DNA from: Candidatus Sulfobium sp.
GTDB taxonomy: Bacteria > Nitrospirota > Thermodesulfovibrionia > Thermodesulfovibrionales > UBA6898
Direction: 5' to 3'
Length of the DNA stretch: 35,640 bases
Assembly: GCA_037380845.1 (NCBI GenBank)
Contig: JARRRI010000010.1
Coordinates: 38,826-74,465, forward strand
In this document: piece by piece, positions 6,290-22,715 of the stretch
Layout: each line of letters starts with the position of its first letter
How positions within the stretch are numbered: the first letter of the stretch is position 1
Made by a program: the position numbers and the translations under genes
The notes under the pieces: model-generated
What the model was told of the DNA's origin: nothing
Seen by the model: the letters and a program-made list of their open reading frames with translations, nothing else
Database searches by the model: none

Positions 6290-6438
6290 GATACCTTTCG
6301 ACAGACCTCGGCTTTACCGGAGTTTCGAACAATGCGGCAACTATCCGCAAAAGTCCCGCCTTACATTATACAGAATACGTGCTCTGGCCATAAACCGGAC
6401 AGTTCTTACTTTCCGGTTGCTTACCAAAAAATTCAGAA

Positions 6439-6607
6439 AGCGCGGAAGAGGCGGCGAAAAAACGTCTTGTAGCGACACCCTTTCAGCCCTATATAGTGGT
6501 TGCCAGCCTTTTTCTGAGAGTCAGCGGATCGTTGAGTCCTCATTTATGTGGAAGATAAATAGAATCATGTCGTCATTACAAGACTTTTTCGGTGTCCCTT
6601 CCGCGCT
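6439..6607. repeat. ~170-bp intergenic element with ~40-bp imperfect terminal inverted repeats, copy A
   Basis: AGCGCGGAAGAGGCGGCGAAAAAACGTCTTGTA...TACAAGACTTTTTCGGTGTCCCTTCCGCGCT. Aligns end to end with 22533..22704. Confidence 0.85.
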
Positions 6608-6712
6608 GTTTTCAAAGTTGGAGTCTACGCCCTTGTTGCGCAGAGGAACGCGACCTCAGGAGATATATTCGGGTTATCCCCGGCAGCACCAGAAGGGATT
6701 TCAGGATGAATA

Positions 6713-9700
6713 CTATTTGAATTCAAACCTGAAGCGTACATCGCCGCCCACGATCCCTCTCTCATCCCTCACCCCCACCAGAGACATCTTTCTGCTGACG
6801 AAATACTCAAGCTTCATTATCTGCTCCTCGGAGGACCCGACCGGAGACGCATAGGTAACGAACACCTTGTCCCCCAGCAGCCGCTTTGAGACAGTCACCC
6901 TCGGTTCGACGGTCCCCGTGTTCTTCGAAACGTAAGGGTCTATCTGGAACCTGTCGAGGCCTGTTATGGTCTTCATCCTCTCCTCCAGCACGTCCTGCAG
7001 TTTTCCGGTCACGAAGGAAGTTGCTTCACTGGCGCCGATCCCGCCTTCCAGCCCTTTCAGTTCACCCCCCGTCTGACCGACAGCCAGCAGCGCGACTATA
7101 TCCATATCCTTCAGAGAAGGGTCCTCCGAGGAAAGCGACACATTGAACCGGTCCAGCTGTCCTTCCAGGTTCATTTTGATCTTGTATCCCTTGACATCCG
7201 TCTCCGCGGCTATGGACAGAAACGGGTTCAGCCTTTCCGTGCCGGAAAAATCGGCGCTGGCATGCGTGATCCTGAACTCGTTGTTCCGGAAGTATACCGT
7301 ACCCTCACTGCTTTCGATCCTCCCCAGCAGGACCGGGCGGTATATCGTGCCCCTGAGGACGACATCGGCACTCACGTCGGCACGCGCGACGTTATTGTCG
7401 ACACGTATACTGTTCCTGCCGGTTATCCTTATGTTGAGTTCCGTCTTCTCCATGTCTGAAATTTCGGCCTTGTATCTCTCGGGCCCCTTTGTCTTCAGGA
7501 GCCAGCTTTTCCACTCCACCCTCCCCTTGTACCGCGCGCGGTTGACCCTGATGTCGCCGGAGACCATTCGCGAGGCAGGCGTACCGTTCAAAAGCAGCGT
7601 CCCTCCCACATTCACACTGAAGTCGTTCGAAAAGGACATGGCGATGTTGTCCAGCCCGGCTTCCACGTAAAACCGCCTGGCGGCAAATCTCTTCAGGTAA
7701 ACAACGCCTGAGAGGTTTACGTCCCCGCCCCCGATCTTTCCGGAGAGTTTCTGCAATACTATCCTGTCGTTGTCCATATAAACATATCCGTTCAGAGAGC
7801 TGAAACGGTAAGGATAGTCCTTCAGGGCAAACGACCCATCCTCTATATTGACACCCCCGTTGATCTGAGGCGCTTCCCAGTCACCCGTAATTGAAAGGAC
7901 AAAATCCGCATCACCTTTCAGCAGTCCTATCCTGCCCGAAAGACTCCTGAATGGAGCGAGGTCCGAATTTCCCTCGAAGACGACGTTATACTTTTTCCCC
8001 AGAACAACGTTTCCGGCTATGGACAGGGAGGTGTTTCCGCTCCTGAGCGAAATGTCCTTCATCTCGAGGTTGCGGTCATCCAACCGGAGCGATATCTCCT
8101 TTTCCCCGGTAAAACTCCGTCCGTACATGGAAAGAGATATCTGTCTGACAACGGCAGACGCGGAGACGTGAGATCTGTCGCCGTGAAGTGAAGCGGCGCC
8201 GCTGAGATTCAGAACGAAATCCTCCGGAACGTCCTTCAGAAAAGCCCCCACCAGCGAATCGTACCTTCCGGGCAGGATCTCCACTGAGGCGTCCCACGGC
8301 AATTCCTTTTCCAGTCCTGCCCTGACGGTGATGTGTACCTTCCTGTCCAGCACCACGGCCCGCAACGAAACCTTTCCGTCGCTTATCCTGGCGGAGACGG
8401 TCCCCCCTCCAACAGGCTTGTCCTCCAGAGATCCCCCGACTACACCGGCCTCCAGAGAAATGAAGGGGCGGCCGATCGTGCCATGTCCTTTACTCTTAAG
8501 GCTGAAAACCACGTCCCCATTCATCTTTTTTCCGATAAAATCGCTAAGCACCACCTTGTCGGAAGAAGCTTTGTAAGCAAAATTCCCGAGGTTGTCTATC
8601 CTGCCGTCCATTGTAAGGACCGAACTTCCCCGTCTGATCCTCATATTTTCAAAACGGAGTTGCCGGTCCCTATACTCCCAGTCAAACAGGACCGAATCAG
8701 TGCTTATGCCGTAAATCCGGGCGTGCTCGACAGAGCCGTCCCCCGAGATAAGGGGCTTTTTTGCCTTACCCCTTATCCTGACATCTGCACTCAGCCCGCC
8801 CGTTCCTCTGAAGCCGGGATAAAAAATCTTCGCGAACTGCCCGAGGTCCGCGTTCTTCACGACGGCTTTTAAACTGTATTCGGGCATGGAAAGATCGAAG
8901 AGCTCTTTAGCGCCGCTGAAGGAGATGCTGCCCTCCAGGCCCAGTGAACCGCCGTCTGTCCTTACGCTCAGAGCACCGATCTTCAGCAGATCCTTTGCAT
9001 AAGTGAAGTCGGCGTCGAGGGCATGCGCCGCATATCCCCTCATAACGGGTTTTTGTATCCTTACATGTCCCTTTATGACCGGATCTTCGAATTTGCCGGT
9101 TATCCTTCCGGAAAACTTCCCGCTTCCCGTAAGCAGCCGGTAATATGGGATGGTGACATCGGTTATGTCCGAGGTCACAAGCCTTCCATCAAAACTCAGC
9201 GTCCGGTTCTTTATGTCGGCCAGCCCCCGAGCAGAAATAACAGAATGGCCTGTGCCAAGTTTAAGGTCCTCAAGTGAAAGCACCTTGTCCTGCATCGCAT
9301 ACCTTCCGGTGATGCTGTTTATCCTTTCCAGCATGTTCTGCCCGTCGCCGGCACCGGTGTATTTGAAATGGCCCTGGGGGTTGAACTTCGCCCCCTCTGT
9401 AACCAGAGTGCCGGTGACTTTGCCCTGCTGTATTCCGGGGTCCCATCCGATCAGCTTGAATACCGGTTTGCTGTCCAGCCCGGAAAAACCGGCCGCGATC
9501 GTATAATAATTCACGACCGGAAGGTGTATGGAAGCTGACACCCTTGCCGTGCCGCCGTAGATCCCGCCCAGTCCGTCCGTGAATTTCATTACACCGTCCG
9601 CATACCGCACTTTGCTGGTCAGGGAATCTACCGCCACGTTGAAAACGTTCCCCTTTTTCAGGGTCATGGTGCCCGCCGCCCTGATATTTCTGAGAGGTCC

Positions 9701-10624
9701 CTCGATCCTCCCTTTTATGTCGACGAGTCCCTCGATCTTTTCCTTTACCTTCAGAAGTTCCATAAGAGTCTGGATATAAAAGTTTCCGTCGAGCTTCAGG
9801 TCCACGGAAATGTCCCCGTCCCCGAGAGCGACAGTCCCGGCGGCCGTTATCCCGCCGTCGCCCCGCCTGTCAAGTCTGAAGATCTTCTTTAGAGAAGAGA
9901 ACATGAGGTTTATGTTCGTCTCCAGCCTCCCCTTTCGCCCGCCGTACTCTCCCGAGCTTCTGACCGTAGAACCCAGGGAGTTGACCTCCAACCTTCTGAT
10001 CCGGACCCTGTCTCCGTTTAAAGTTAAAAGGACGTCTGCACTGCCGCCTATCTCGGGCCACCCGCCCTTCCTGACGACAGCGTTCCCGACGGAAGCCCTG
10101 ACGCGCCGGGTTTTTCCGAGGATGATCTCTCCGTTGAACCCCTTGGCCTCAGCCGAAATGTCACTCTCCCGATCACGGAAATCCGCAGTGCCGTTCTGTA
10201 TTTCCACAGACAAAACATCGACCCTGAGAGTCCCCTTCTTTTTTGAAACAGCATAGTTGCGTATATTCCCGGCTATCTCTCTGACCTCAGCGTCGTCCGT
10301 AACAACCTCAGGGTCCTTTATCACAAGCCTTCGGATATCCGCCCGCCGGGCGATGAATCCCGAAAGGTCGATATAGGCCTTCGCCCCCCTGATCGAGAGT
10401 ATCCTCTTTCCGTCACGGCCGGACATCGTCAGACCGTCCGCCTCGACAAAGAGGGGAAAAAGGTTTACGTAAATCCTGCGGGCCGTCACTTTCGTTCCCG
10501 TGGCCGCTTCGATCTCGGGGAGCATTATCCCTTTCATAAGACTGGAGACATGCCCTCCCCGGAGAAAGACCGCCGCAATAACCGCCAGGAGAGCGAGAGA
10601 AACAAGAAGGACCCGTTTTTTCAT
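6713..10624 (-). CDS. tamB: TamB/AsmA-like translocation and assembly module protein
   Basis: ~1300 aa: N-terminal anchor, long Gly-rich beta-taco repeats, DUF490-like C-terminus (LRGTIYRPVLLGRI...NPFLSIAAET...RFRFEFK). ATG at 10624 overlaps the glnD stop (ATGA). Confidence 0.85.
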   Translation of the reverse strand: MKKRVLLVSLALLAVIAAVFLRGGHVSSLMKGIMLPEIEAATGTKVTARRIYVNLFPLFVEADGLTMSGRDGKRILSIRGAKAYIDLSGFIARRADIRRLVIKDPEVVTDDAEVREIAGNIRNYAVSKKKGTLRVDVLSVEIQNGTADFRDRESDISAEAKGFNGEIILGKTRRVRASVGNAVVRKGGWPEIGGSADVLLTLNGDRVRIRRLEVNSLGSTVRSSGEYGGRKGRLETNINLMFSSLKKIFRLDRRGDGGITAAGTVALGDGDISVDLKLDGNFYIQTLMELLKVKEKIEGLVDIKGRIEGPLRNIRAAGTMTLKKGNVFNVAVDSLTSKVRYADGVMKFTDGLGGIYGGTARVSASIHLPVVNYYTIAAGFSGLDSKPVFKLIGWDPGIQQGKVTGTLVTEGAKFNPQGHFKYTGAGDGQNMLERINSITGRYAMQDKVLSLEDLKLGTGHSVISARGLADIKNRTLSFDGRLVTSDITDVTIPYYRLLTGSGKFSGRITGKFEDPVIKGHVRIQKPVMRGYAAHALDADFTYAKDLLKIGALSVRTDGGSLGLEGSISFSGAKELFDLSMPEYSLKAVVKNADLGQFAKIFYPGFRGTGGLSADVRIRGKAKKPLISGDGSVEHARIYGISTDSVLFDWEYRDRQLRFENMRIRRGSSVLTMDGRIDNLGNFAYKASSDKVVLSDFIGKKMNGDVVFSLKSKGHGTIGRPFISLEAGVVGGSLEDKPVGGGTVSARISDGKVSLRAVVLDRKVHITVRAGLEKELPWDASVEILPGRYDSLVGAFLKDVPEDFVLNLSGAASLHGDRSHVSASAVVRQISLSMYGRSFTGEKEISLRLDDRNLEMKDISLRSGNTSLSIAGNVVLGKKYNVVFEGNSDLAPFRSLSGRIGLLKGDADFVLSITGDWEAPQINGGVNIEDGSFALKDYPYRFSSLNGYVYMDNDRIVLQKLSGKIGGGDVNLSGVVYLKRFAARRFYVEAGLDNIAMSFSNDFSVNVGGTLLLNGTPASRMVSGDIRVNRARYKGRVEWKSWLLKTKGPERYKAEISDMEKTELNIRITGRNSIRVDNNVARADVSADVVLRGTIYRPVLLGRIESSEGTVYFRNNEFRITHASADFSGTERLNPFLSIAAETDVKGYKIKMNLEGQLDRFNVSLSSEDPSLKDMDIVALLAVGQTGGELKGLEGGIGASEATSFVTGKLQDVLEERMKTITGLDRFQIDPYVSKNTGTVEPRVTVSKRLLGDKVFVTYASPVGSSEEQIMKLEYFVSRKMSLVGVRDERGIVGGDVRFRFEFK

Positions 10625-13122
10625 TTTTTCAGCACCTCCCACAGGTCGGCCAGCAGCTCCTGAGCGGCCCTGAGGCCGATCTTGCGCTTTTCAGACTGGA
10701 CATAGAAGATGTCCTGGGCCAGTCCGGTCTCCGTGTTGATCCTCGCGGACACAATATCTATCCCGATTTTGTACATCACGCTTGAGATATCGTATAACAG
10801 CCCGAGCCTGTCGGGCGAAAAAATCTCCAGAAGAGTGAATTCCTCCGACGCCTCGTTGTCCAGCTCTATGAAGACGTCAAAGGGACATACGGCCGTAGCG
10901 CTCCTGCTGGTAACTGACAGGGGCCTCCCCCCGACTATCGCCGCCCTCAGCCCTTCCTCGACCTCATTCTCGAAACCGTCCCACCAGAGCTTTTTCCAGT
11001 TGGAGGCAGATATCTTGTCTATCACGATTCCGCTGCTCGCCGTAAATATCCGTCCTCTCACTATGTTTACTCCCTTGGACGAAAGAAGACCGACTATCTT
11101 TGAAAAGAGTCCCGGACAGTCCCTGGCGCTGACGGACAGCTCCGCCACCGAATCGGTGCCGGCGTCTATGCGCAGGGCAAAACCCGTCTCCGACGCCTTC
11201 CGCACGAGTGCATAGTCGGCGATTATCCTGTCGCCGGGAGTCGAGAGCAGATACCGGTCAGGCAAGTCCTCTACGAAAGAGGCAAGCGCCCCCGCTTCGA
11301 TGCCGGGATAAGTCCGGTTAAGGCGCTCTATATATTCCGACCTGTCTTCTTTCACCCCCGTCAGGTATTCAAGAGTGTTGTCGTACAATTCCCGGAGAAG
11401 GTATGCCTTCCAGGAATCCCAGAAACCCGGATTTACAGCAGACATGTCGGCATAAGTGATCAGATAGAGCGCCCGGAGGTTCTCGGAGTCTCCGACCTCA
11501 TCCGCGAAGGCGGCGATCACCCCGGTGTCGCTTGCTTCCCTTGTCAGTGCAACCCGGGCCATCAGAACATGGTTTCTTACCAGGAGTTCTATTCTCGCCC
11601 TCTTTTCCCCATCGAGGTTGAATCTTTCCATGACATTTTTCAGTCGCTTATACCCTTCCTCTTCATGGTGCCTGCCGGCGCCCTTGCCGATATCGTGAAA
11701 CAGAAGCACCATGAACAGGATGTCGACATTCTCCATTCCGTTGATCATCAAGCGGAGGTCCCCGAGCCTCCCGTATTTGGTATTCCTGAGTTCCTCAAGA
11801 TGCCTGACAGCCATGAGGGTATGCTCGTCTACCGTATACATATGATAAGGTTCGCGCACGACGAGCAGCCGCAACGCGCCGAATTCGGGCAGAAACCTGC
11901 CGAGCACACCCGTTTCGTTCATCTCGGCCAGCGTATCATAAACTCTTTCTCCCCGCAGTATATCGAGAAAACGCCGCACCAGTTCAGGGGAGCTCCTGGT
12001 AGCTCTGTTTATCCTGACGAGACTCGTACGGATCTTCTCTTTCAGCGCATCACTGAACGTCCGGCCGGTCTTTGCGCGAAGATAGAAACCCTCCATGATT
12101 TCGGCGGCGTCCAGCCCGGAGGGACCGCCCTTCGTGGAAATCAGCCTGCCGCCCGACACGGCAAAGGCCCCTGAAACCTTTCTGACCAGAAAATCCCGTC
12201 TGGCTCTTACGTACGGCCTGCTGCACATAACCATGATCTTCTTCGTCAATTCCCTGATGATTTTGCTCTTGAGGTAGTAGTATCGCAGCAGTCTTTCATA
12301 CGCCATGAATTTATGCGAGTCGTGGAACCCGAGAAGGATCGCGACGTTCTTCTGGTATTCAAACGAGAGGACATCGTTCTTCCGTCCGCTTTCGAGATGG
12401 AGACAGTACCTCGCCCTTAGGAGGAAATCGCGGGCTCCGGCGAGACGCCGTGACTCGTAAGAGTCAAGAAGGCAGAGGAAACCCTGGAAGTCCGCAACCT
12501 TCATCGCCACTTTAGACAGCCAGTAGGCCGTATGAATGTCCCTCAGTCCCCCTTCACCCTCTTTCAGGTGCGGCTCCAGGAGGTAAGGGGACTCGCCCGA
12601 ATCCAGGTGTCTCTTCTCCATCTCCCTCAGTTTGTCACGGACGAAGTCCTTCCGTTTCTTGTAGGCGATAACCGGGTAGACCTTTTCCCGGAAGTCGCTG
12701 TAAAGCCTCCTGTCACCGGCTATGTAGCGGGATTCGAGGAGAGAGGTCCTTGTCCTCACGTCCCTGAAGGCCTCTTCAATGCATTCCGCGGCTGTCCTGA
12801 AGGAATGGCTTATGTCGAGCCCCGTATCCCACAGCCCGTAAAGTACGGCCTCCGCTTTTTCCGTGCACTCGCGGCGGGAGGCGAGAAACATGATGTCGAT
12901 ATCGGAAAACGGGGCGAGTTCTCCTCTTCCATAACCCCCGACGGCAAGAAGCGCCGTATCTTCCCCGCTCTCAACCGGCCCGAATATATCCCGGAGGAGG
13001 GTATCTATCGTACGCGTATATCTTTCGACAAGGAGACCTCCCGTGAGCCCCTCACGAACCCAGCCCTCTATATCCCTTAATATCTCTTCCTTCATAACTA
13101 AGCAGCACGATTTCGCGGACAT
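10621..13122 (-). CDS. glnD: [Protein-PII] uridylyltransferase/uridylyl-removing enzyme
   Basis: AVGGYGRGELAPFSDIDI nucleotidyltransferase motif, EPHLKEGEGGLRDIH, HD domain (YTVDEH, LFHDIGK), two ACT domains (DCPGLF, DRLGLL). Start 13122 or 13095. Confidence 0.93.
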   Translation of the reverse strand: MSAKSCCLVMKEEILRDIEGWVREGLTGGLLVERYTRTIDTLLRDIFGPVESGEDTALLAVGGYGRGELAPFSDIDIMFLASRRECTEKAEAVLYGLWDTGLDISHSFRTAAECIEEAFRDVRTRTSLLESRYIAGDRRLYSDFREKVYPVIAYKKRKDFVRDKLREMEKRHLDSGESPYLLEPHLKEGEGGLRDIHTAYWLSKVAMKVADFQGFLCLLDSYESRRLAGARDFLLRARYCLHLESGRKNDVLSFEYQKNVAILLGFHDSHKFMAYERLLRYYYLKSKIIRELTKKIMVMCSRPYVRARRDFLVRKVSGAFAVSGGRLISTKGGPSGLDAAEIMEGFYLRAKTGRTFSDALKEKIRTSLVRINRATRSSPELVRRFLDILRGERVYDTLAEMNETGVLGRFLPEFGALRLLVVREPYHMYTVDEHTLMAVRHLEELRNTKYGRLGDLRLMINGMENVDILFMVLLFHDIGKGAGRHHEEEGYKRLKNVMERFNLDGEKRARIELLVRNHVLMARVALTREASDTGVIAAFADEVGDSENLRALYLITYADMSAVNPGFWDSWKAYLLRELYDNTLEYLTGVKEDRSEYIERLNRTYPGIEAGALASFVEDLPDRYLLSTPGDRIIADYALVRKASETGFALRIDAGTDSVAELSVSARDCPGLFSKIVGLLSSKGVNIVRGRIFTASSGIVIDKISASNWKKLWWDGFENEVEEGLRAAIVGGRPLSVTSRSATAVCPFDVFIELDNEASEEFTLLEIFSPDRLGLLYDISSVMYKIGIDIVSARINTETGLAQDIFYVQSEKRKIGLRAAQELLADLWEVLKK

Positions 13123-13398: not shown

Positions 13399-14970
13399 AT
13401 GTCTCTCAAGAAAAACATCATTCTCAGCTTTCTCATAAGCTCCGTTATCATCGCCATCCTGGCCGTCGCGTCATACGTGAATTTCATCGAAATCAGAAAA
13501 GAGATCCGCTACCTCGAGCTTTCGGATACGGTCAGGAGCAAATCTCTCCAGTTGAGAAGACACGAAAAAAACTATTTTCTTTACATGGATGCGGAAGAGA
13601 TCCGGGGAGTTTACATCTATCTGAAGGAACTCAGGGACATCATCCGGGAGGGAAGCCCTATCGACAGCAGGGGCAAGTTGCAGGAGCTGAAATCCATTAT
13701 CGGCGAATATGAGCAACGGTTTAACCGGATTGAGAACTATATAGCGGAGTTTCATAAGGAATTCAACAGCCTCAGACCTTACCGACCGCCGAATGCGATC
13801 TTTTCCCCGCTGATCGAATCGACCTTTCTCGAGCGGCCCATGGTCAACGCCAGGCTGCTGGAAAAACTGTTTTCCCTGCCGGTTGACGCGCCGATCATCA
13901 GGCACCTCCGTGAACTCAACGATGAGATCGGGGCACTCAGAAAGAACGGGGAAAATATACTCGCCGTCTCGAAGGAGCTGGACAAGTCCGCGAGGGAAAA
14001 GGTCGAACACGCCATCGGTGTACTGCAGCTCGCTACCCTGGTCCTCCTTCCCCTCTTCTTTATCGTCGGTCTCGTCACCCTGTTCCTTAACAGCCACAGC
14101 GTTGTAAGACGGCTCAGGATACTGACGGATGCCGTAAGGAAGACAGGAAAGGGCAATTTCTCGTCTCTGGCGGTGCCCGAAAAGCGCGATGAAGTCGGCG
14201 TACTCATCACGGCATTCAATGCAATGGAGCGCGACCTCGTGCTGCGTGAAGAGGAATTGAAAAACAAAAATGAAGAACTGCTCCAGAGCAGGAAACTGGC
14301 CTCCCTCGGGACCCTCGCCTCCGGGGTCGCCCACGAACTCAACAACCCTCTTAACAATATATACATATCCGCCCAGATACTCGAAAAAGAAGCCAGGGAC
14401 ACATGCTCTCCCCAGGTTAAGGAGATCATGGAGGATATTGTGAGCCAGACCATCCGGGTGAAGAGGATCGTCGGGGACCTGCTTGAATTTGCACGGGGTC
14501 GAGAGCCCCGGATCGCTGAAGTCGGACTTAACGACCTCCTCCGGAGGGCTTATAAACTGGTCTGCGTGACCGCCGCAACGGAAGGAATAAACTTCAGTCT
14601 CGACGTCGACCCCGAGAATCTGGCCGTCAATGCCGACCCCGAGCAGCTGGAGAGGGTTTTCATCAACCTTTTCAGCAATGCGGTCGATGCCATGTCGGGA
14701 CGCGGCGATCTCAAAGTCGATGCCCGCAGTCACGAAGATGTCTCCATAATAAAGGTCTCGGACAGCGGAAATGGAATGTCCGCGGAGGCCGTGGAAAAGA
14801 TATTCGAGCCGTTCTATACTACAAAAGACAAAGGTACCGGACTCGGTCTTGCCATCGTATTCAACATAATTACCAGGCACGGGGGCGACATCAAAGTCGA
14901 AAGCAGGGAGGGGCGGGGGACGTCTTTCACCATTACCCTGCCTTCCGGACGGATCACACATGAATCTTAA
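13399..14970 (+). CDS. Membrane sensor histidine kinase (2 TM, HAMP, HisKA, HATPase; NtrB/AtoS type)
   Basis: GVAHELNNPL H-box, NLFSNAVDA, DSGNGM, FEPFYTTK, GTGLGL. Confidence 0.93.
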   Translation: MSLKKNIILSFLISSVIIAILAVASYVNFIEIRKEIRYLELSDTVRSKSLQLRRHEKNYFLYMDAEEIRGVYIYLKELRDIIREGSPIDSRGKLQELKSIIGEYEQRFNRIENYIAEFHKEFNSLRPYRPPNAIFSPLIESTFLERPMVNARLLEKLFSLPVDAPIIRHLRELNDEIGALRKNGENILAVSKELDKSAREKVEHAIGVLQLATLVLLPLFFIVGLVTLFLNSHSVVRRLRILTDAVRKTGKGNFSSLAVPEKRDEVGVLITAFNAMERDLVLREEELKNKNEELLQSRKLASLGTLASGVAHELNNPLNNIYISAQILEKEARDTCSPQVKEIMEDIVSQTIRVKRIVGDLLEFARGREPRIAEVGLNDLLRRAYKLVCVTAATEGINFSLDVDPENLAVNADPEQLERVFINLFSNAVDAMSGRGDLKVDARSHEDVSIIKVSDSGNGMSAEAVEKIFEPFYTTKDKGTGLGLAIVFNIITRHGGDIKVESREGRGTSFTITLPSGRITHES

Positions 14971-16297
14971 GGTACTTGTTGCAGAAGACGAGGAAATCAC
15001 TCTGAAACACCTTCTTAATACCCTGACTAAAGAGGGGTACCAGGTGACAGGTGCCGGAGACGGCCGTGCTGCCCTGGAAGAGATCTCCCGGGACCATTTC
15101 GACGTCCTCATAACGGACATAAAGATGCCGGTGATAAACGGGATCGAGTTGCTGGGCAAGGCAAAAGAGAAAGACCCGGAGATCGAGGTGCTGGTGATTA
15201 CCGGGTTCGGCAGCATAGGCTCTGCGGTCGAGGCGATGAAGAAAGGGGCCTATGAATATATTACAAAGCCCTTCGACCTTGACGAGCTCATCCTGAAGGT
15301 CCGGAATATTCGGGAAAAGAAGCTCTTGATGAAGGAAAATACCGCACTGAGGGCTTATCTGGACAGGGACAGAAAAGTCTCCGTTGTGGCCAAGAGCAGG
15401 AGTATGCAGAAGATACTGAACATCATCGAGAGCATAAGCGATTCCGACTGCAATGTGCTTTTAACGGGAGAAAGCGGGGTAGGCAAGAGTCTTCTCGCCA
15501 AGATAATCCATTTCACGAGCAGAAGGCAGAATATGCCTTTCCTCTCGATCAACTGCGCCACCCTGACCGAGGAGCTTCTGGCAAGCGAACTTTTCGGCCA
15601 TGAAAAGGGCGCCTTCACCGGGGCCGTGAAAACAAAACAGGGACTTCTGGAGATAGCGGATACAGGCACTCTGTTCCTTGACGAGATAGCCGAGATGTCT
15701 CCGAATCTGCAGGCGAAGCTCCTTAAGGCCATTGAAGAAGGCGAATTTTTCAGGGTGGGGGGTACGAGGCCGATAAAGGTCGATGTGAGGTTTCTGGCTG
15801 CGACGAACCAGCACGTAGGGAATATACTGTCCGAAGGGAAGCTGAGGGAGGACCTTTATTACAGGCTCAACGTCATGGAGATATTTATTCCGCCTCTGCG
15901 GGACCGCAAAGGGGACATTGAACCTCTCAGCACCTATCTCCTGCAGAAGCACCTGCCGAAGGCGAACAAGAGGATAACCGGTTTCACGAGACAGGCCATG
16001 GATGTCCTGATGAATTATAGCTTCCCGGGAAATGTGCGTGAGCTCGAAAACATCATTGAGAGGGCCGTCATTCTCGAAAAAGATACGCTCATCACTCCCG
16101 AGAGCCTTCCCGAAAGCCTCAAAATCTTTCATATCCAGACAATAGAACCGGATCAGATCCCCATCAAAACGCTGGAGGAGGTCAACAAGGAATACGCTCA
16201 CAAGGTCGTGGAGATGTTCGGGGGCAACAAGAGCAAGGCTGCAGAACTCCTGGGTATATCCAGAACAAGCCTCTGGAGAATTCTGAAGGAACAATAA
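14960..16297 (+). CDS. Sigma54-dependent response regulator (REC-AAA+-Fis HTH), intact
   Basis: TDIKMP receiver, GESGVGKS, SELFGHEKGAFTGA, LFLDEI, AATN, REDLYYRLNV, PGNVREL, NKSKAAELLGISRTSLW. Confidence 0.95.
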   Translation: MNLKVLVAEDEEITLKHLLNTLTKEGYQVTGAGDGRAALEEISRDHFDVLITDIKMPVINGIELLGKAKEKDPEIEVLVITGFGSIGSAVEAMKKGAYEYITKPFDLDELILKVRNIREKKLLMKENTALRAYLDRDRKVSVVAKSRSMQKILNIIESISDSDCNVLLTGESGVGKSLLAKIIHFTSRRQNMPFLSINCATLTEELLASELFGHEKGAFTGAVKTKQGLLEIADTGTLFLDEIAEMSPNLQAKLLKAIEEGEFFRVGGTRPIKVDVRFLAATNQHVGNILSEGKLREDLYYRLNVMEIFIPPLRDRKGDIEPLSTYLLQKHLPKANKRITGFTRQAMDVLMNYSFPGNVRELENIIERAVILEKDTLITPESLPESLKIFHIQTIEPDQIPIKTLEEVNKEYAHKVVEMFGGNKSKAAELLGISRTSLWRILKEQ

Positions 16298-16410
16298 GGA
16301 ACAGTGAAGATTCCAGCCGCAGAAAACGCAGGCGTTTTCAGCTTTGCCGGATCCCTGGTGACAACTGAAACGTCAGGAAACCACCTGTCACGATACAGGG
16401 TTGGTGTTCG

Positions 16411-17739
16411 ATGAATTTCAGAATCCTGATCGCGGAAGATGAAGACATAACCAGAAAGCACCTCCTTTATGCGCTCAAGCGAGAGGGCTATGAGACCGTT
16501 GGCGTCAGTAACGGGAGGGAGGCTTTGGACTACATCGAAAAAGAACGCTTCGACGTCCTCATCACCGATATCAGGATGCCGGAGATGAGCGGCATCGAAC
16601 TCCTCGAAAAAGTCCGGGAGAAATATTACGGGGTGGAAGTCATGATTATCACGGGGTACGGCAGCATAGACTCTGCCGTCGACGCAATGAAAAAAGGCGC
16701 ATACGAATACATAACCAAACCCTTTAACCTGGACGAACTCCTCGCAAAGGTGAAAAACATCCACGAAAGAAGCGTACTGAAAAGGGAGAATGTCGCCTTC
16801 AGGAACTTTTACGGAATGAACAGGGGGACCTCCGTCGTTGCCCGAAGCCAGGCCATGCGTAATATAATCGAAACGGTCGAACACATGAGCGATTCGGACT
16901 GCAACGTCTTTCTGGGCGGAGAAAGAGGCGTGGGCAAAGGCCTGATCGCAAAAATGATCCATTTCACGAGCAGGAGGCGGAACTTGCCGTTTATCTCACT
17001 TAACTGTTCGACCATTCCCCCCCATCTCCTTGCCGAAGAACTTTTCGGAGCGGAGACGGGGGCGGGTACGGCCGGTTTCAAAGTAAGGCAGGGGCTGGTC
17101 GAGGTGGCGAATTCGGGCTCCCTCTTTCTGGACGAGATAAGCGCCCTCCCCCCCGGGGTTCAGACCGGCCTGCTGCGGACGATAGAAGATGGCGAGTTTT
17201 TGAGGACCGGGGGCGTAAAGCCCGTCAAGGTGGATGTCCGCTTCATCACATCCTCGGCCAGGGACGTGAAAAAAGCGGCAGGCAACGCATTTCTGGAGGA
17301 CCTTTTTTACAAGCTCAACGTAATGGAAGTCTTCGTTGCGCCGCTTCGGGAACGGAGGGAAGACATCGAACCGCTCAGCATTTTTTTCCTGCAGCGGCAT
17401 TGCGGGAAATCGTGTAAACAGATAAACGGGTTCACGAAGGAGTCAATAGATATCCTGTTGAACTACAGTTATCCGGGCAACGCGAGGGAACTCTCGAACA
17501 TCATTGAAAGGTCGGTAATCCTAGAAACGGGAGACGTTATCACTCCTTCCAGTCTGCCGAGAAGCATAAGAATGTTCCGGATCGATACCTTCCAGCCTGA
17601 CAGAGTGCTTACCCTTGAAGAGTTGACCAGGGAGTATGCCGAAAAAATACTTATCACCGTGGAAGGCGACAAGGCCAGAGCAGCATCCCTGCTGGGAATA
17701 ACGGAAATAGATCTGCGGAGAATGCTGAAGAAGAAATAA
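16411..17739 (+). CDS. NtrC-family response regulator paralog with degenerate sigma54-activation motifs
   Basis: Colinear paralog of the upstream gene. Receiver intact, but GAFTGA is replaced by GAGTAG and REDLYYRL by LEDLFYKL. Confidence 0.9.
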   Translation: MNFRILIAEDEDITRKHLLYALKREGYETVGVSNGREALDYIEKERFDVLITDIRMPEMSGIELLEKVREKYYGVEVMIITGYGSIDSAVDAMKKGAYEYITKPFNLDELLAKVKNIHERSVLKRENVAFRNFYGMNRGTSVVARSQAMRNIIETVEHMSDSDCNVFLGGERGVGKGLIAKMIHFTSRRRNLPFISLNCSTIPPHLLAEELFGAETGAGTAGFKVRQGLVEVANSGSLFLDEISALPPGVQTGLLRTIEDGEFLRTGGVKPVKVDVRFITSSARDVKKAAGNAFLEDLFYKLNVMEVFVAPLRERREDIEPLSIFFLQRHCGKSCKQINGFTKESIDILLNYSYPGNARELSNIIERSVILETGDVITPSSLPRSIRMFRIDTFQPDRVLTLEELTREYAEKILITVEGDKARAASLLGITEIDLRRMLKKK

Positions 17740-17785
17740 TCGATTCTCCTCTTTTCCTTGCAATTATTATGCTGCTCGCCCGGAA

Positions 17786-17802
17786 TGTTCCAATATGAAA
17801 CA
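17786..17802. promoter_or_regulatory. Candidate enhancer (UAS) site 1 for the sigma54 activator
   Basis: TGTTCCAATATGAAACA, an imperfect palindrome matching TGTTCAGATTTGAAACG at 17942. Confidence 0.5.
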
Positions 17803-17941
17803 GATTGTATTCCCTGCATTTCCCCAAAGACGCTGTCTTCAATCAGGTCCGATGACCTCATGAAAAGCAGTCCAGTCGGGGATTGCCGAGCTTTTTTGGA
17901 GGCCGCTCCTCGGGAGGAGCGGATACCCATGTGTTCACATC

Positions 17942-17958
17942 TGTTCAGATTTGAAACG
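17942..17958. promoter_or_regulatory. Candidate enhancer (UAS) site 2
   Basis: TGTTCAGATTTGAAACG shares TGTTCnnATnTGAAAC with site 1 and lies upstream of the IHF site and the -24/-12 promoter. Confidence 0.5.
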
Positions 17959-17993
17959 TTTCGCCAGCCGTAGGAACTCCTTTTTCTCTTGTA

Positions 17994-18006
17994 AATCAAC
18001 CGGTTA
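17994..18006 (+). promoter_or_regulatory. IHF binding site
   Basis: AATCAACCGGTTA matches WATCAANNNNTTR exactly and sits just upstream of the -24 element. Confidence 0.7.
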
Positions 18007-18011
18007 TGACA

Positions 18012-18027
18012 TGGCACGTCCGTTGCT
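18012..18027 (+). promoter_or_regulatory. Sigma54 (-24/-12) promoter of the USP/TauE operon
   Basis: TGGCAC-GTCCG-TTGCT is a perfect TGGCAC-N5-TTGCW match, 44 bp before the USP ATG. Confidence 0.9.
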
Positions 18028-18071
18028 ATCCTTATGTTGTCTGAAATCGCAACAGTGAGGAAGAAGATGAT

Positions 18072-18491
18072 ATGAAAGGCTACAGAAAAATTCTCATCGC
18101 AGTAAACGGATCGAAGGACACCCTGACTCAGGGCCTGAGGCTCGCTCACAATGAAAAGTGCTGGGTCACCGTAGTAAAGGTCCTGCCTCCCTACGACGGC
18201 GACCTGGAGTTAGTCGGAATAAAGAATCTGGATGATGTCCTGAATGGTGACGCGGGGAAGGAGCTACAGGAAATAAGGAAGGTAGCCGACTCGGAAAGGA
18301 GCCTGGTCAAGACCCGCCTGGAGAGAGGACAGATCCATGAAAAGATCGTCGAGGTTGCGGAGGACGAAAGATGCGACCTTATAGTAATGGGCGCCCACAA
18401 AAAAACGCTGCTTGAGAGGATCTTCAGTCCGCGGATAGTGGAAAGGGTTATCAGCCGGGCACCCTGCCCCGTACTGGTAGTCGGAACATAA
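18072..18491 (+). CDS. Universal stress protein (single USP domain)
   Basis: YRKILIAVNGS, DLIVMGAH, RAPCPVLVV. Confidence 0.92.
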   Translation: MKGYRKILIAVNGSKDTLTQGLRLAHNEKCWVTVVKVLPPYDGDLELVGIKNLDDVLNGDAGKELQEIRKVADSERSLVKTRLERGQIHEKIVEVAEDERCDLIVMGAHKKTLLERIFSPRIVERVISRAPCPVLVVGT

Positions 18492-18564
18492 CAGGGGACC
18501 GTCCCTCTGCCGATTTGTCTTACATGCGATTTGGCGATAAGGGACGGTTCAGTTAGGAGAAGGG

Positions 18565-19056
18565 ATGAAGGGAAAACAGCTTTTGTTCGTTACTTATCAT
18601 GATGAAAACTTTGATGAGGGGCTTTCCTATGCCGTGGATCTCGCAAAGACAATGGGCGACACCGTCGGGATATTGATGATTTACAAGAGAAAGGTAATGG
18701 AAAAGTTCGAGGACACGATGACAGCGGTAACCTTTGCGGAATCGAACGACCTCAGAACAGCTAGGGAAATGATAAGTGACGATTACAGGAAACGCCAGGA
18801 AGATTTCGACAACAAGCTATCCCTTATAAAGGATAGTTGCAGGAAGGCCGGTGTGTCCGTGGATATAAGCACGGCCGCTACCGAGGTCGTCTCGGCAATT
18901 AAAAATATTCTCAGGCAGAATACCAGGATCGATATGGTATTGCTCAGCCCGAGCATAACGAACGACAGCAATATAAACTCAAAGACTCTCAATAAGCTTG
19001 TAAAAACGGCCTCAAGGCCGATTGTTACAATGGCCAAACAGGCAGGTTCTGCCTGA
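18565..19056 (+). CDS. Hypothetical protein, possibly a divergent USP-like fold
   Basis: RBS AGGAGAAGG. Pattern LLFVT...GLSYAVDLAK...IDMVLL...LVKTASRPIVT echoes USP topology. Confidence 0.7.
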   Translation: MKGKQLLFVTYHDENFDEGLSYAVDLAKTMGDTVGILMIYKRKVMEKFEDTMTAVTFAESNDLRTAREMISDDYRKRQEDFDNKLSLIKDSCRKAGVSVDISTAATEVVSAIKNILRQNTRIDMVLLSPSITNDSNINSKTLNKLVKTASRPIVTMAKQAGSA

Positions 19057-19079
19057 ATAGAAAAAAGGAGGAGGTTTAG

Positions 19080-19997
19080 ATGCATCTTTATTTACCTGTA
19101 GCACTAACCAGTATGAACATCCTTGTTCCGGTCGGTCTGGGATTGGCGGTGGGGCTTCTCTCAGGCCTGTTCGGGGTTGGAGGCGGCTTTCTTCTCACGC
19201 CTCTCCTGATCATGTTCGGTATCCCCTCGACGGTGGCGGCGGCTACCGACTCCAACCAGATAGTGGCGGCTTCAACATCGGGAACATACGCGCACTGGAA
19301 GATAGGAAACGTCGATTTCAAGATGGGTCTCCTGCTGCTCGCCGGCGGCTTCATCGGCGGTCTCGTAGGCGTCCAGGGCATCAAGATACTGAGGGCGATG
19401 GGCAATGCCGACTTTGTCATCAAGATAACCTATGTGCTGATGCTCGGTATCGTCGGCGGCTACATGTTCATAGAAAGTCTTCAGAGCCTGAAGAAAAAGA
19501 AGACGGAGGAAGTCAAACCCAAAAAAGAGTCGGCTTTCGGGAAATTCCTGAATTCCCTTCCCCTTCAGACGCATTTTGAAAAGTCCGGCGTGACGCATTC
19601 GGCCTTCGTGCCGATCGTATTCGGCGGCTTCGTCGGGATACTGGCTGCGGTTATGGGTGTCGGCGGCGGATTCCTTATGGTGCCGGTAATGGTGTACATC
19701 CTGAGGATGCCCATGCACGTGGTCGTCGGCACCAGTCTCTTCCAGATACTGTTCAACTGTATAGAAGTGACTTTTCTGCAGGCCTATACCAACCATACGG
19801 TGGACTTTATCCTGGCCGTCCTTCTCCTCATCGGCTCGACCGTAGGTGCCCAGGTCGGCACGGTGTTCGGCAGGAAGCTCAAGGGCGACCAGCTGAAGAT
19901 AATACTTGCCGGCATCGTACTGGTGGTGACCGTAAAAATGGTCTTCGATCTCACGATAACGCCTGACCTTCTCCTGGGCCAGGCCGGAGGACACTAA
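19080..19997 (+). CDS. Sulfite exporter TauE/SafE (TSUP) family membrane protein
   Basis: Two GVGGGF motifs (GLFGVGGGFLLTP, MGVGGGFLMVP), about 8 TM segments, AGGAGGAGG RBS. Confidence 0.93.
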   Translation: MHLYLPVALTSMNILVPVGLGLAVGLLSGLFGVGGGFLLTPLLIMFGIPSTVAAATDSNQIVAASTSGTYAHWKIGNVDFKMGLLLLAGGFIGGLVGVQGIKILRAMGNADFVIKITYVLMLGIVGGYMFIESLQSLKKKKTEEVKPKKESAFGKFLNSLPLQTHFEKSGVTHSAFVPIVFGGFVGILAAVMGVGGGFLMVPVMVYILRMPMHVVVGTSLFQILFNCIEVTFLQAYTNHTVDFILAVLLLIGSTVGAQVGTVFGRKLKGDQLKIILAGIVLVVTVKMVFDLTITPDLLLGQAGGH

Positions 19998-19998
19998 T

Positions 19999-20790
19999 AT
20001 GAACAGACTGCGTTATACATTGCAGCTTGCGCTCATGACGGTTGTGATCAGCGCCGGTCTTCTGTCAGTATCCCAGGGAGAACTGTCCGCGGAGTTGACG
20101 ACCAAGGCAAATCACGACCACATCAATATAGACTTTTTCTACCATGGCGGTTCCGTAAGCATACGGGGAGTATCTGACCCCGGCACGGACCTCGTCATAA
20201 AGATAACTTCCGAGCACGGACACCATACCCTCCGGCAGAAGGGAAAAGTCGGGGTCCTCTGGATGAACGTCGGAACGCTTAAATTTGAGCATGTGCCGTC
20301 CGTCTATTTTCTTCAGAGCACCAGGAGCCTCGATGATATCCTGCCTGCCGCGGAACAGCTCAAGTACGGCCTGGGGTACAAGGCGCTGGCCGAGGAGAGT
20401 GAGGTCACCCCGTTGAAGGACCCGTCCCAGAAAGGACAATGGTTCAAGGAATTCCTGAGGTACAAGGAGGCGTCGAAGGTCTACTCCGTGGAGTCCGGGA
20501 AGATTTCTCTCACCCGGAAAGGAGGAAAGCAGAACTATTATATCATGATGGACTGGCCCTATCAGGCCGCCCCCGGCGATTACCTTGTTACCGTGTATGC
20601 CGTCAAGGACAGGAAAGTCGTCGAACAGGCCCACGCCAAAGTGGTAGTGCAGCAGGTGGGCGTAATCAAGAGCCTCTCAGGTATGGCCAAGAACAACGGT
20701 GCCTTTTACGGATTCATATCCGTGCTCGTAGCACTGGGTGCCGGCTTCGGCGTCGGTCTGATATTCAGGAAAGGCGGGGGGGCCCACTGA
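19999..20790 (+). CDS. TIGR02186-like conserved membrane-anchored protein (TSUP partner)
   Basis: Signal peptide, I.IDFFYHG, KGKVGVLWMN, PGDYLVTVYA, C-terminal TM helix. Follows the TSUP gene as in known pairs. Confidence 0.75.
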   Translation: MNRLRYTLQLALMTVVISAGLLSVSQGELSAELTTKANHDHINIDFFYHGGSVSIRGVSDPGTDLVIKITSEHGHHTLRQKGKVGVLWMNVGTLKFEHVPSVYFLQSTRSLDDILPAAEQLKYGLGYKALAEESEVTPLKDPSQKGQWFKEFLRYKEASKVYSVESGKISLTRKGGKQNYYIMMDWPYQAAPGDYLVTVYAVKDRKVVEQAHAKVVVQQVGVIKSLSGMAKNNGAFYGFISVLVALGAGFGVGLIFRKGGGAH

Positions 20791-20792
20791 TC

Positions 20793-21650
20793 ATGTATGA
20801 AAACATAGTGGTGGGTTTCGATAATACTGAATCCAGCAAGGCGGCCGTCATCGAGGTCTCTAACTGGATAAAGAGGCACGGAGGGAAATTCGTCCTTGTC
20901 CACGCCGTTTACTTCGACGAGGAAGAATTCGGCAACGCCCCCGAGCAGTTGGCAAAACGCCTCGAATTCGGCAAGAATGTCTGCTACCAGGCAAAAGAGA
21001 AGGTCGTCTCGGAATTCGGTATAGAGGCGGACGCGCTGGTCTGTGAAGGTGAGCCGCCCGACGTGGTTGCCAACATTGCCAGGGAGAAAAAGGCCGACCT
21101 CATCGCGATGGGGACTTACGGCAGGAAAGGCCTGAAGAGACTCCTGATGGGAAGCGTCACCTCGGCTGTAATCGTCCATTCGCCCTGCGACGTGCTGGTC
21201 GTAAAAAAGCCCTGTACGGAATGCACCGGATCTTATTCTTCCGTACTTCTTCCCTTTGACGGCTCCGACTTCAGCAAAAATGCTCTGAAAAGGGCATGTC
21301 AACTGTCGAAGGTCGACGGCTGCACGGTGACGGTCCTCTATGTCATTCCGCGCTATGAGGAAATGATAGGGTTTTTCCGGACCGAGTCGATCAGGAAGAG
21401 TCTTATGCGGGAGGCCGACAAGGTCGTAGATGCCGCAAAAGAGATCGCCTCGGGCGAGGGGATCTCCGTCAAGACCGAGATCCGGGAGGGCGCTACCGGA
21501 GATGAGATAGTAAAGGCGGCGGAGAGTCTTAAGAACGATCTTATAATGATGGGAACATACGGATGGCGGGGGGTCAACAAGGCGATCATGGGAAGCACCA
21601 CCGAAAGGGTAATCATGCACGCCTCCTGCCCCATACTCGCGGTCAAATAG
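20793..21650 (+). CDS. Universal stress protein (tandem USP domains)
   Basis: Starts MYENIVVGFD; two domains with DLIAMGTYGRKG..MGSVT and DLIMMGTYGWRG..MGSTT. The ORF-track start at 20439 is an overextension. Confidence 0.92.
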   Translation: MYENIVVGFDNTESSKAAVIEVSNWIKRHGGKFVLVHAVYFDEEEFGNAPEQLAKRLEFGKNVCYQAKEKVVSEFGIEADALVCEGEPPDVVANIAREKKADLIAMGTYGRKGLKRLLMGSVTSAVIVHSPCDVLVVKKPCTECTGSYSSVLLPFDGSDFSKNALKRACQLSKVDGCTVTVLYVIPRYEEMIGFFRTESIRKSLMREADKVVDAAKEIASGEGISVKTEIREGATGDEIVKAAESLKNDLIMMGTYGWRGVNKAIMGSTTERVIMHASCPILAVK

Positions 21651-21677
21651 TATTCTTCTGAAAATATAACAGTCTTC

Positions 21678-21714
21678 GGCCCCGGACGGCCCAAAGCCTT
21701 CCGGGGCCTTTTTT
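21678..21714 (+). terminator. Rho-independent terminator of the USP/TauE operon
   Basis: GGCCCCGGA.GGC-CCAAA-GCC.TCCGGGGCC followed by a T-tract. Confidence 0.85.
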
Positions 21715-21768
21715 ATGCCGATCCCTGAAAGCTGAATGCGCAGGAGTGAAGCCGGTCGTTATCTTTGC

Positions 21769-22503
21769 CTACTGCCTGTATTTGTGATACGCCCCGGCCC
21801 TGGAGGTCTTCTCCGTAATATACTTCACATGGTCGTCCAGAAGCCTTGAAAGCTCTGCGACCAGCGCTTCTTGTGGTTTAATCCTCTCAAGTTTGGAGAG
21901 GCTCCATTCGAGCAGGGTGCCGTGAAGTCTTATCATTCCCGGAGATATCTTCAGGGACGACTCGTTCTCCCCGGAACATTCCCGGCAGAGAACAGTGCCG
22001 TGGGACAGGTAGAATTCGCTTCCCGCCTTTCCGCACCTGCCGCAGCCGTCGAGGCCGGGCAGATATCCGACGATCGAAAGCAGTCTCACCTTATAGTAGA
22101 GCGGCAGGAGCCGGGCGCCGCAGTCGGCTTCCAGTGCCCGCAGTGTGTTTATCAGCAGGACATACACCTCGCCGTTGGCGTCCCTTTCCGCCATGAAGTT
22201 CAGCGTCAGTTCCACCATCTCCGCAGCCGGCAGGAAACACTTAAGCGAATTTCTCAGGGAACTGAACGGATGGATAATATCCGACTGGGTAAGCCTCGGC
22301 AGGGCCGCGTCCTCCTTGCCCCAGAAGGCGATCTTCGAATGTGTCAGGGGCTCAAGGCTGCTGCCGAACCTGCTTTTGGTCTTCCGCGGACTCTTGGCGA
22401 AGGTCTTTATGATGCCGTGGGTTTCGGTAAGATAGGTGACTATGAGATCAGCTTCGCCGAAAGGGATGGTTTTTAAGACAATGCCTTCTGTCCTCTGAAG
22501 CAT
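21769..22503 (-). CDS. recO: DNA repair protein RecO
   Basis: TEGIVLKTIPFGEADLIV, SRFGSSLEP, Zn motif CGRC...CREC; near era. Confidence 0.93.
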   Translation of the reverse strand: MLQRTEGIVLKTIPFGEADLIVTYLTETHGIIKTFAKSPRKTKSRFGSSLEPLTHSKIAFWGKEDAALPRLTQSDIIHPFSSLRNSLKCFLPAAEMVELTLNFMAERDANGEVYVLLINTLRALEADCGARLLPLYYKVRLLSIVGYLPGLDGCGRCGKAGSEFYLSHGTVLCRECSGENESSLKISPGMIRLHGTLLEWSLSKLERIKPQEALVAELSRLLDDHVKYITEKTSRAGAYHKYRQ

Positions 22504-22532
22504 TTACTTTTCAGTCGCAACAAAATACCGGC

Positions 22533-22704
22533 AGGGCCCGGGAGTGGCGCCGAAAAATGTCTTGCAGCGACACCATCCGGCCCTGTAAAGAGGCCCACCG
22601 GCCGTTTTTTGAAAGCCATGATACGTTTATGTCTGCATTCATGTGAAAGATAGATAGGATCACGTCGTCATTGCCAGACTTGTTCGGTGTTCCTGCCGGG
22701 CCTT
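22533..22704. repeat. ~170-bp intergenic element with terminal inverted repeats, copy B
   Basis: GGCCCGGGAGTGGCGCCGAAAAATGTCTTGCA...TGCCAGACTTGTTCGGTGTTCCTGCCGGGCC. Homologous to 6439..6607, same orientation. Confidence 0.85.
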
Positions 22705-22715
22705 TCAGAACAGGA

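Follow-up and report, generated by a model that had tools for sequence, protein, structure and literature searches.

The window analyzed here, a stretch of 35,640 nt from Candidatus Sulfobium sp. (GCA_037380845.1, contig JARRRI010000010.1, positions 38,826–74,465 of the forward strand), carries two copies of one intergenic, hairpin-forming element, designated copy A and copy B. The element is non-coding and approximately 212 nt long, and we read it, with a probability of roughly 0.8, as an old family of non-coding miniature transposable elements with inverted repeats (MITEs) of Ca. Sulfobium and related Nitrospirota; bacterial MITEs as such are already known. A first-pass annotation of this DNA had described two copies lying on the same strand, and both were found in the same orientation at the places it gave.

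Copy A lies in the spacer between an Omp85/POTRA gene (3587–6289, − strand) and a TamB-family gene (6713–10642, − strand). Copy B fills the entire spacer between recO (21769–22503, − strand) and a gene with a bifunctional nuclease domain (DUF151; 22716–23168, − strand), with the era gene next beyond the DUF151 gene. The genes were named by Pfam, and all genes flanking the two copies are on the − strand. The profile of the element matched copy A at 6409–6625 (E 1.2e-54) and copy B at 22505–22712 (E 8.3e-56), the latter match leaving 3 nt to the DUF151 stop codon and 1 nt to the recO start. The features of the two copies are as follows, with the closing-stem arms taken from the minimum-free-energy fold of each copy and from the 34-pair consensus stem.

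Copy A
6405..6408: left flanking 4-mer CTTA, read from the sequence; decayed candidate target-site duplication
6409..6623, + strand: whole element, approximately 215 nt; boundaries from alignments of 30 copies
6439..6477, + strand: closing stem, 5' arm
6456..6479, + strand: hyper-conserved 5' inner-stem block GAAAAAACGTCTTGTAGCGACACC, from divergence from the subfamily consensus
6563..6595, + strand: conserved 3' inner-stem block, which includes the pattern used in the genome scan; conservation partly forced by the search
6569..6607, + strand: closing stem, 3' arm, with a 3-nt CAU bulge
6624..6627: right flanking 4-mer TCTA, read from the sequence; partner of CTTA

Copy B
22503..22506: left flanking 4-mer TTTA; the gene strand reads TAAA and abuts the recO ATG
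22507..22715, + strand: whole element, approximately 209 nt; from alignments and the profile
22534..22571, + strand: closing stem, 5' arm
22552..22574, + strand: hyper-conserved 5' inner-stem block, from the alignment and per-region divergence
22658..22690, + strand: conserved 3' inner-stem block, from the alignment and a core-motif search
22664..22703, + strand: closing stem, 3' arm
22715..22718: right flanking 4-mer ATTA (TTAC one base on); contains the DUF151 TAA stop on the − strand (22716–22718)

The extent of approximately 170 bp proposed earlier (6439–6607 and 22533–22704) was too short: the conserved paired element of approximately 212 nt reaches approximately 30 nt further 5' and 11–16 nt further 3'. 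The two copies align with a mean column identity of 81% over 224 columns; by eye, the identity of their arms had been put at approximately 80%. Core motifs of the element occurred in the 35.6-kb window at these two sites only, with 0.27 and 0.00 occurrences expected by chance, and a relaxed profile search of the window revealed no third copy, returning only palindromic self-hits.

At copy B, the flanking 4-mers TTTA and ATTA agree at three of four positions. Because these 4-mers hold the DUF151 TAA and abut the recO ATG, copy B appears to have split a tight stop–start junction downstream of era, and the site before insertion was probably, to judge from the present flanks, the TAA–ATG junction of DUF151 and recO. 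With copy B upstream of it, recO now has no obvious Shine–Dalgarno sequence. A sigma-70-like promoter match (TTCACA, 18 nt, TATCAT) is located inside copy B on the gene strand (22618–22647, − strand); since the equivalent region of copy A has none, this match is not a feature of the family.

Dispersed copies, ends and flanking duplications

One genome scan was performed with a degenerate pattern from the 3' inner arm of the hairpin, and 10-kb flanks were kept around each match. The pattern returned 31 loci, and the element was present at 30 of them, across five Nitrospirota metagenome-assembled genomes (MAGs). The loci were distributed over their sources as follows.

Ca. Sulfobium MAG Spart_219: 17 loci
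Four other Nitrospirota MAGs: 5, 5, 2 and 1 loci
Rhodoferax contig: 1 locus

The Rhodoferax locus (L012) was rejected as a family locus, being a chance match to the pattern with no profile hit. A profile built from 26 full copies and run on the loci and the window gave 46 hits, two of which were weak secondary hits and were dropped as artefacts. This left 44 copies or fragments in the 30 loci and the window, 30 covering at least 170 model positions and 14 being truncated; the scan pattern itself was absent from 12 of these 44 profile-found copies. The Spart_219 MAG held 26 copies or fragments in 282 kb, nine being extra hits in the flanks. A rough extrapolation from these biased loci gives approximately 30 per Mb, which would put the number of copies or fragments in a genome at the order of a hundred.

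The neighbour genes of different copies are unrelated, as judged by Pfam. Pairwise identity of full copies averaged 69% (range 44–98%), the sole near-identical pair being orthologous, and on the evidence of their sequences the copies are old. The open reading frame (ORF) coordinates that loci L010 and L011 share are a coincidence, the sequences being 25% identical. Plasmid and phage collections gave no match to the element, and literature searches for this combination of features found no earlier description of the family.

Locus L025 is a hot spot (4076–13000), with six copies or fragments in 17 kb; the intervening genes are ordinary (IF3, a TPR protein and a phosphatase). A 150-nt 5' fragment (4076–4226) in this locus nearly duplicates the beginning of the full copy at 5025–5245, which points to local duplication or to recombination between copies. 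An autonomous element was also considered here, as 5' and 3' parts lie 1.5 kb apart, and was rejected: the genes for IF3 and the TPR protein lie between them, and the 5' part is the near-identical partial duplicate of the neighbouring copy.

The alignments showed that the element ends in CC(C/T)T...AGGG, starting near CCTTACAGTTGCAAA.AAAT and finishing near TTTTGCAAC.TCAGGG. Its terminal inverted repeats (TIRs), CCTTACAGTTGCAAA... and ...TTTGCAAC.TCAGGG, are inverse complements of each other, and many copies carry degenerate versions of them. At the 5' end, the sequence is CCTTAC, CCCTAT or CCCTCA; the 3' end, when reverse-complemented, is CCCTGA. The IS5/IS1182-like termini that had been proposed (GGCGCCGAAAAA.GTC and GACTTTTTCGGTGTC) are internal, because the element reaches beyond the earlier coordinates on both sides. 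The suggestion that palindromes are the insertion target also fell away, insertion being instead into T/A-rich 4-mers.

Target-site duplication was assessed in the 11 of 30 full copies that had both ends confidently placed and were not orthologous duplicates, with a slip of 1 nt allowed; the other 19 had decayed ends or duplicated an ortholog. A perfect 4-bp direct repeat flanked six of the 11 copies (TAAG, GTAA/TAAA, TAAA, TTTA, TCAT and TTAT), compared with a rate of 9.1% in mismatched pairings of left and right flanks (p=1.7e-4) and 0 of 11 in an inverted-repeat control. Copy A was scored as a miss, the automatic test having misplaced its right end. One orthologous spacer may be an empty site: a spacer between divergent genes, including one for a YchF-type GTPase, measures 304 and 303 nt with the element (L015 and L016) versus 95 nt without it (L024, Spart_219), a difference equal to the length of the element in this single case, whose junction cannot be aligned base for base.

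Protein-coding capacity was evaluated on the − strand, where a small protein (MILFIFH...) was a candidate. It was rejected: at least 50 codons are open in 13 of 25 copies and the frame is cut short in the other 12, with two different frames in use. Variable sites were spread over the three codon positions (31/35/35), there were 71 synonymous versus 204 non-synonymous codon differences, and neither codon periodicity nor a Shine–Dalgarno sequence was found for this frame. The MITE reading, one of two put forward in the first-pass annotation, was strengthened by the many dispersed copies, the variable 4-bp duplications and the lack of coding capacity, and the orthologous spacer without the element would add to this as a candidate empty site.

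Hairpin fold, strand asymmetry and uneven conservation

Almost the whole element is predicted to form one long hairpin. The long closing stem reported for each copy was recovered, at approximately 37 bp in both folds. As RNA, copy A folded at -65.6 kcal/mol (z -5.4) on the + strand vs -53.0 kcal/mol (z -3.4) on the − strand, and copy B at -70.7 kcal/mol (z -4.0) vs -59.1 kcal/mol (z -2.4). RNAalifold predicted a closing stem of 34 pairs from 30 copies.

Pairing in this stem survives substitution, as had been described for the two window copies, and does so family-wide. Standard pairs accounted for 96.0% of the 1012 stem cells, compared with 88.8% after shuffling (0 of 500 shuffles reached 96.0%) and 43–52% in slid controls. 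Changes on both sides were observed in 17 of the 34 pairs, versus 6.7 in shuffled alignments and 4–9 in slid controls. The outer half of the stem drifts by such compensatory change, as in alignment columns 50/227 (CG 15, GC 9, AU 2, UA 1). The compensatory pair first noticed between copies A and B (GCGCGG/CCGCGC vs GCCCGG/CCGGGC) is real and corresponds to columns 49/228; in the second example offered, the TA-to-CG exchange is real, but copy B has one T·C mismatch in that helix. Between the orthologous copies of two species (L015, 9845–10056, and L016, 367–576), the inner stem shows one T-A to C-G double change. The 5' terminal region of these two copies differs by approximately 28%, vs 8–9% in the flanking DNA.

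The apical region of approximately 100 nt yielded no robust consensus structure: RNAalifold applied to the middle 106 columns gave a 3-bp helix at -2.3 kcal/mol, and the apical folds of the subfamilies disagree. A small apical stem-loop can be seen by eye in columns 114–131 (copy A, 6493–6507), formed by CCNG, a U-rich loop and CNGG, with apparently compensatory variants (CCGG/CCGG, CCTG/CAGG and CCAG/CTG); the consensus fold does not support it.

The two strands are not equivalent. With RNA parameters, the + strand gave the more stable fold in 28 of 30 copies (on average -74.0 kcal/mol, against -66.1 kcal/mol for the − strand), and the consensus fold score was -46.2 for the + strand vs -16.6 for the − strand. 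The + strand also folded better in 27 of 30 copies with DNA parameters, so the fold asymmetry cannot separate RNA from single-stranded DNA. The stem cells comprised 839 Watson–Crick pairs, 133 G·U, 15 A·C and 25 other combinations, and G·U exceeded A·C in 30 of 30 copies; in the 34-pair stem, copy A has 3 G·U and 1 A·C, and copy B has 4 and 1. The G·U asymmetry that had been seen in the window copies, favouring the strand antisense to the flanking genes, is therefore found across the family (133 G·U vs 15 A·C). In five columns, G·U either predominated or shared the column with G-C and A-U, and no column was mostly A·C.

A compositional artefact was rejected as the source of this asymmetry, the + strand not being G+U rich (A.269, C.242, G.235, T.254). 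Known transcription- and replication-linked C-to-T biases would be expected to push in the opposite direction. Pair states private to one copy were symmetric (G·U 10, A·C 11), so they give no sign of + strand selection after insertion. We take the asymmetry to have been formed in the source lineages while they propagated and to have been inherited from there, and not to have arisen from post-insertion decay.

Conservation along the element was measured as divergence from the subfamily consensus, with subfamilies of 17 and 8 copies (values given in that order).

5' inner stem, unused in finding the copies: 3.1%; 1.2%
Apical region: 18%; 12%
5' outer stem: 18%; 9%
Termini, inflated by alignment error: 31–35%; 27%

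The 5' inner stem is 6–10 times better conserved than the rest of the same copies, and the near-invariant part is a subterminal block of 23–30 bp with the CAU bulge. The simplest reading is that the inner stem reflects a constraint on source elements, for example as a putative subterminal transposase-binding repeat.

Searches for known RNA families gave no support for an RNA gene. Rfam returned 0 matches at the gathering score over the whole window, and when both copies were searched at E<=10, with 6S RNA included, the only match was a chance one to SNORD110 (17 bits vs a cut-off of 64); no Rfam family matches the element. No conserved promoter or terminator was found for it. A 6S gene is expected once or twice per genome, whereas one MAG contains 17 matches to the scan pattern.

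Orientation and genomic context

Genes around the copies were called with a codon-usage caller, whose calls in the window agree with the genes that Pfam supports there; of 49 ORFs flanking copies, 38 were confirmed by Pfam. The 46 profile hits were reduced to 40 independent sites by setting aside the 2 weak secondary hits together with 3 orthologous duplicates and 1 hit at a contig edge. Their contexts were as follows.

Co-directional genes, + strand of the element antisense: 25 sites
Co-directional genes, + strand of the element sense: 4 sites
Divergent genes: 5 sites
Convergent genes: 6 sites

Antisense copies were in excess at the co-directional sites (25 of 29, p=1.0e-4), and also when strong hits alone were counted (17 vs 4, p=0.007). 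In antisense contexts, copies lay a median of 6 nt from the upstream stop codon (n=21), and the corresponding distance to the next start was 54.5 nt (n=16).

Replication-linked orientation was considered as a cause and rejected: GC skew follows gene direction, and L025 contains antisense copies in both absolute orientations. Since these L025 copies each follow the local genes, the bias tracks transcription and not replication. A terminator explanation of the bias was likewise rejected, the number of U residues in the 8 nt after the stem being alike on the two strands (3.6 vs 3.4). Full-length sense copies had fewer U (2/8); they comprise three copies, which represent two independent sites, and a further, doubtful case. 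Sense copies lack the U-tract or, in one truncated copy, the 5' arm, in numbers too few to count; a bearing of U-tract loss on the orientation bias is a hint from too few cases. One sense copy lies between prfA (RF-1) and prmC in two MAGs (L031, 9967–10175; L007, 9093–9300), and its post-stem U-run is replaced by GGTGATGAAA.

Elsewhere in the window, a HAMP histidine kinase gene (13399–14970) lies directly upstream of two adjacent genes for sigma-54-dependent response regulators (14960–16297 and 16411–17739), which are paralogues with 55% amino-acid identity. Because they are paralogues, they contain the longest direct repeats in the window (D1, 15847–16079; D2, 17295–17527). An ORF of 106 aa (26010–26330, − strand), adjoining a rubrerythrin gene, matches only the C-terminal third of AhpC/TSA (81–121 of 124) together with the 1-Cys peroxiredoxin C-terminal domain; from these domain matches, it may be a truncated peroxiredoxin gene or a gene with a mis-placed start.

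Mechanism, alternatives and significance

If the element is a MITE, a DDE/DDD transposase encoded elsewhere in the genome would cut and paste it into T/A-rich 4-mers, duplicating 4 bp; 4-mers of this kind are frequent at stop codons and tight gene junctions. Pairing in the 34-bp closing stem has withstood many double substitutions, with G·U states as intermediates on one of the strands. Selection would then filter survival, with copies persisting in short spacers and, inside operons, nearly only in the orientation that places the weaker-folding strand in the messenger RNA (mRNA); the stronger + strand hairpin would probably be polar or destabilising there. The near-invariant inner stem is a putative subterminal transposase-binding site, for which a host-factor or RNA-level role is also possible.

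IS1380 elements end in CC and duplicate 4–5 bp, and piggyBac carries terminal plus internal repeats. The piggyBac account in PMC10813416 describes a 4-bp TTAA duplication with the variants TAAA, TTAG and GTAA, TIRs that start with CCCTT or CCCTC, and IS1380 transposases as prokaryotic relatives of piggyBac that serve as the outgroup there. The present element resembles MITEs of this kind in its 4-bp T/A-rich duplications (TTAA-like, TAAA, TAAG, TTTA) and its ends (CC(C/T)T...AGGG), but its target is looser than strict TTAA, the comparison being by described signature alone. As a lead from the end and duplication signature, the cognate enzyme is most likely of the IS1380/piggyBac type.

Several observations weigh against transposition as the full account. 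No transposase was detected by Pfam among 92 ORFs (30 from the window, 13 from L025 and 49 lying next to copies), no autonomous partner element was found, and no protein repeated at at least 70% identity within a MAG was present among 468 predicted proteins; with neither transposase nor autonomous partner found, the IS1380/piggyBac link is one of resemblance only. The ends were clear enough for the duplication test in only 11 of 30 copies, 5 of these 11 have imperfect flanking repeats, and the flanks of the window copies (CTTA/TCTA and TTTA/ATTA) agree by eye at only 2–3 of 4 positions. The junction of the candidate empty site resists base-for-base alignment because coding DNA is just 66–73% identical across the species. 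The termini are the least and the inner stem the best conserved parts of the element, the opposite of the pattern expected for a plain TIR-bound MITE, and the conservation of the 3' inner arm is partly a search artefact, since most copies were found via an exact pattern there. Finally, cut-and-paste transposition of double-stranded DNA alone does not explain the strand-specific G·U pairing or the orientation bias.

The alternative that survives best, though we consider it unlikely, is an exapted MITE, whose hairpin, chiefly the CAU-bulged inner stem, would be kept for its use to the host or to the element, as a strand-specific module that acts as RNA or binds protein. It might block antisense transcription, provide a site between cistrons for RNase processing or for stabilisation, or serve as a palindrome bound by a regulator. 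Such a role would fit the 6–10 times better conservation of the 5' inner stem, which was not used in finding the copies, and the tie between orientation and local transcription (25 antisense vs 4 sense), including the antisense copies in both absolute orientations within the 17-kb locus. It would also fit the placement of the copies (median 6 nt from the upstream stop, n=21; 54.5 nt from the next start, n=16) and the T-A to C-G double change between the orthologous L015 and L016 copies. However, the conservation of the inner stem is equally explained by a constraint on source elements, such as a transposase-binding site; stem changes private to single copies are balanced between G·U (10) and A·C (11), 14 of 44 copies are truncated, and no conserved + strand promoter or consensus apical structure was found. 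That the MITE has spread the inner stem as a strand-specific module to dozens of operon junctions in Sulfobium-like Nitrospirota is a doubtful proposition.

A hairpin mobile as single-stranded DNA, either a REPIN moved by RAYT or an IS200/IS605 palindrome-associated element, with the + strand hairpin as the substrate of an HUH or tyrosine transposase, is highly improbable. The better folding of the + strand with DNA parameters (27 of 30 copies) and the excess of G·T-type over A·C combinations (133 to 15), inherited from source lineages as a single-stranded substrate would give, are in its favour. However, variable 4-bp direct repeats flank the element, and to our knowledge the RAYT/REPIN and IS200/IS605 families make no target duplication. 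IS200/IS605 palindrome-associated elements have separate subterminal hairpins at each end and are not known to have TIRs or a duplication, whereas a single hairpin spans the present element and 4-bp duplications are present. Orientation follows local genes and not a set direction of replication, and neither RAYT nor TnpA was found among the 92 ORFs examined. REPIN and REP sequences (PMC3116915, PMC3337134, PMC3733652) are similar to the element in being hairpin-forming, non-autonomous, extragenic and abundant, with arm pairing kept. The REP units described in PMC3733652 are 20–40 bp long and carry GTAG or CGTC tags; the present element forms a hairpin over its whole length of approximately 212 nt, and its ends carry neither of these tags.

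A family of stand-alone structured non-coding RNA (ncRNA) genes, 6S-like or otherwise regulatory, transcribed from the + strand and multiplied by gene duplication, was the other reading of the first-pass annotation and is now largely refuted, with barely any probability left to it. The element has a strong fold favouring one strand and significant covariation in the closing stem, and its size and long-hairpin shape recall 6S RNA, a likeness tested by Rfam only. Against this stand the absence of any Rfam match even at E<=10 with the 6S families included, the 282 kb of one MAG that carry at least 26 copies or fragments, target-site duplications, the truncation of 14 of 44 copies, the lack of a conserved promoter or terminator and of a consensus structure in the apical 100 nt, and the complete filling of a gene junction by copy B, 1–3 nt from both genes. 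Compared with 6S RNA itself (RF00013 and its related Rfam families), the element shares a length of approximately 170–210 nt and a long closing stem around a less ordered middle, but it occurs in dozens of copies with duplications and truncations, and no promoter was found for it.

The MITE reading also places the element beside other small repeats of bacteria. ERIC/IRU sequences of enterobacteria are multicopy intergenic imperfect palindromes of 100–200 nt that are co-transcribed with their neighbour genes, show compensatory changes and are reported to have orientation-dependent effects on mRNA. The present element is similar to them as an intergenic multicopy palindrome whose hairpin is maintained by compensatory change, but it belongs to another phylum, its 4-bp duplications are clear, its closing stem is much longer, and in operons it is strongly biased towards the antisense orientation. 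Correia elements of Neisseria and the RUP and BOX elements of pneumococci are small non-autonomous elements with TIRs that form RNA hairpins and lie in intergenic DNA, often within transcription units. For Correia elements, the duplicated target is TA, and they have IHF sites as well as ends that resemble promoters; a TA duplication, IHF sites and promoter-like ends were not found in the present element.

As a MITE, the element provides uncultivated sulfate-reducing Nitrospirota with a repeat family defined by its boundaries, profile and target, and recognising it prevents the mistaken annotation of a transposon relic as a novel ncRNA or a homologue of 6S RNA. If the IS1380/piggyBac link is true, that superfamily would include a bacterial MITE whose conserved subterminal repeat is unusually long. 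At the locus itself, the splitting of the junction in the era/DUF151/recO cluster by copy B may affect the coupling of these genes. If the inner stem has been exapted, a + strand RNA or DNA structure would block or process transcripts running against the operon, or a common binding site would tie many unrelated operons to one protein; the antisense bias, the proximity to stop codons and the low divergence of the inner stem would in that case reflect exaptation and not mere tolerance. The family also forms a natural data set, with one hairpin at approximately 40 independent sites, a strong operon orientation filter and a strand-specific pairing signature, and is suited to asking which orientation of a long hairpin operons tolerate, and why.

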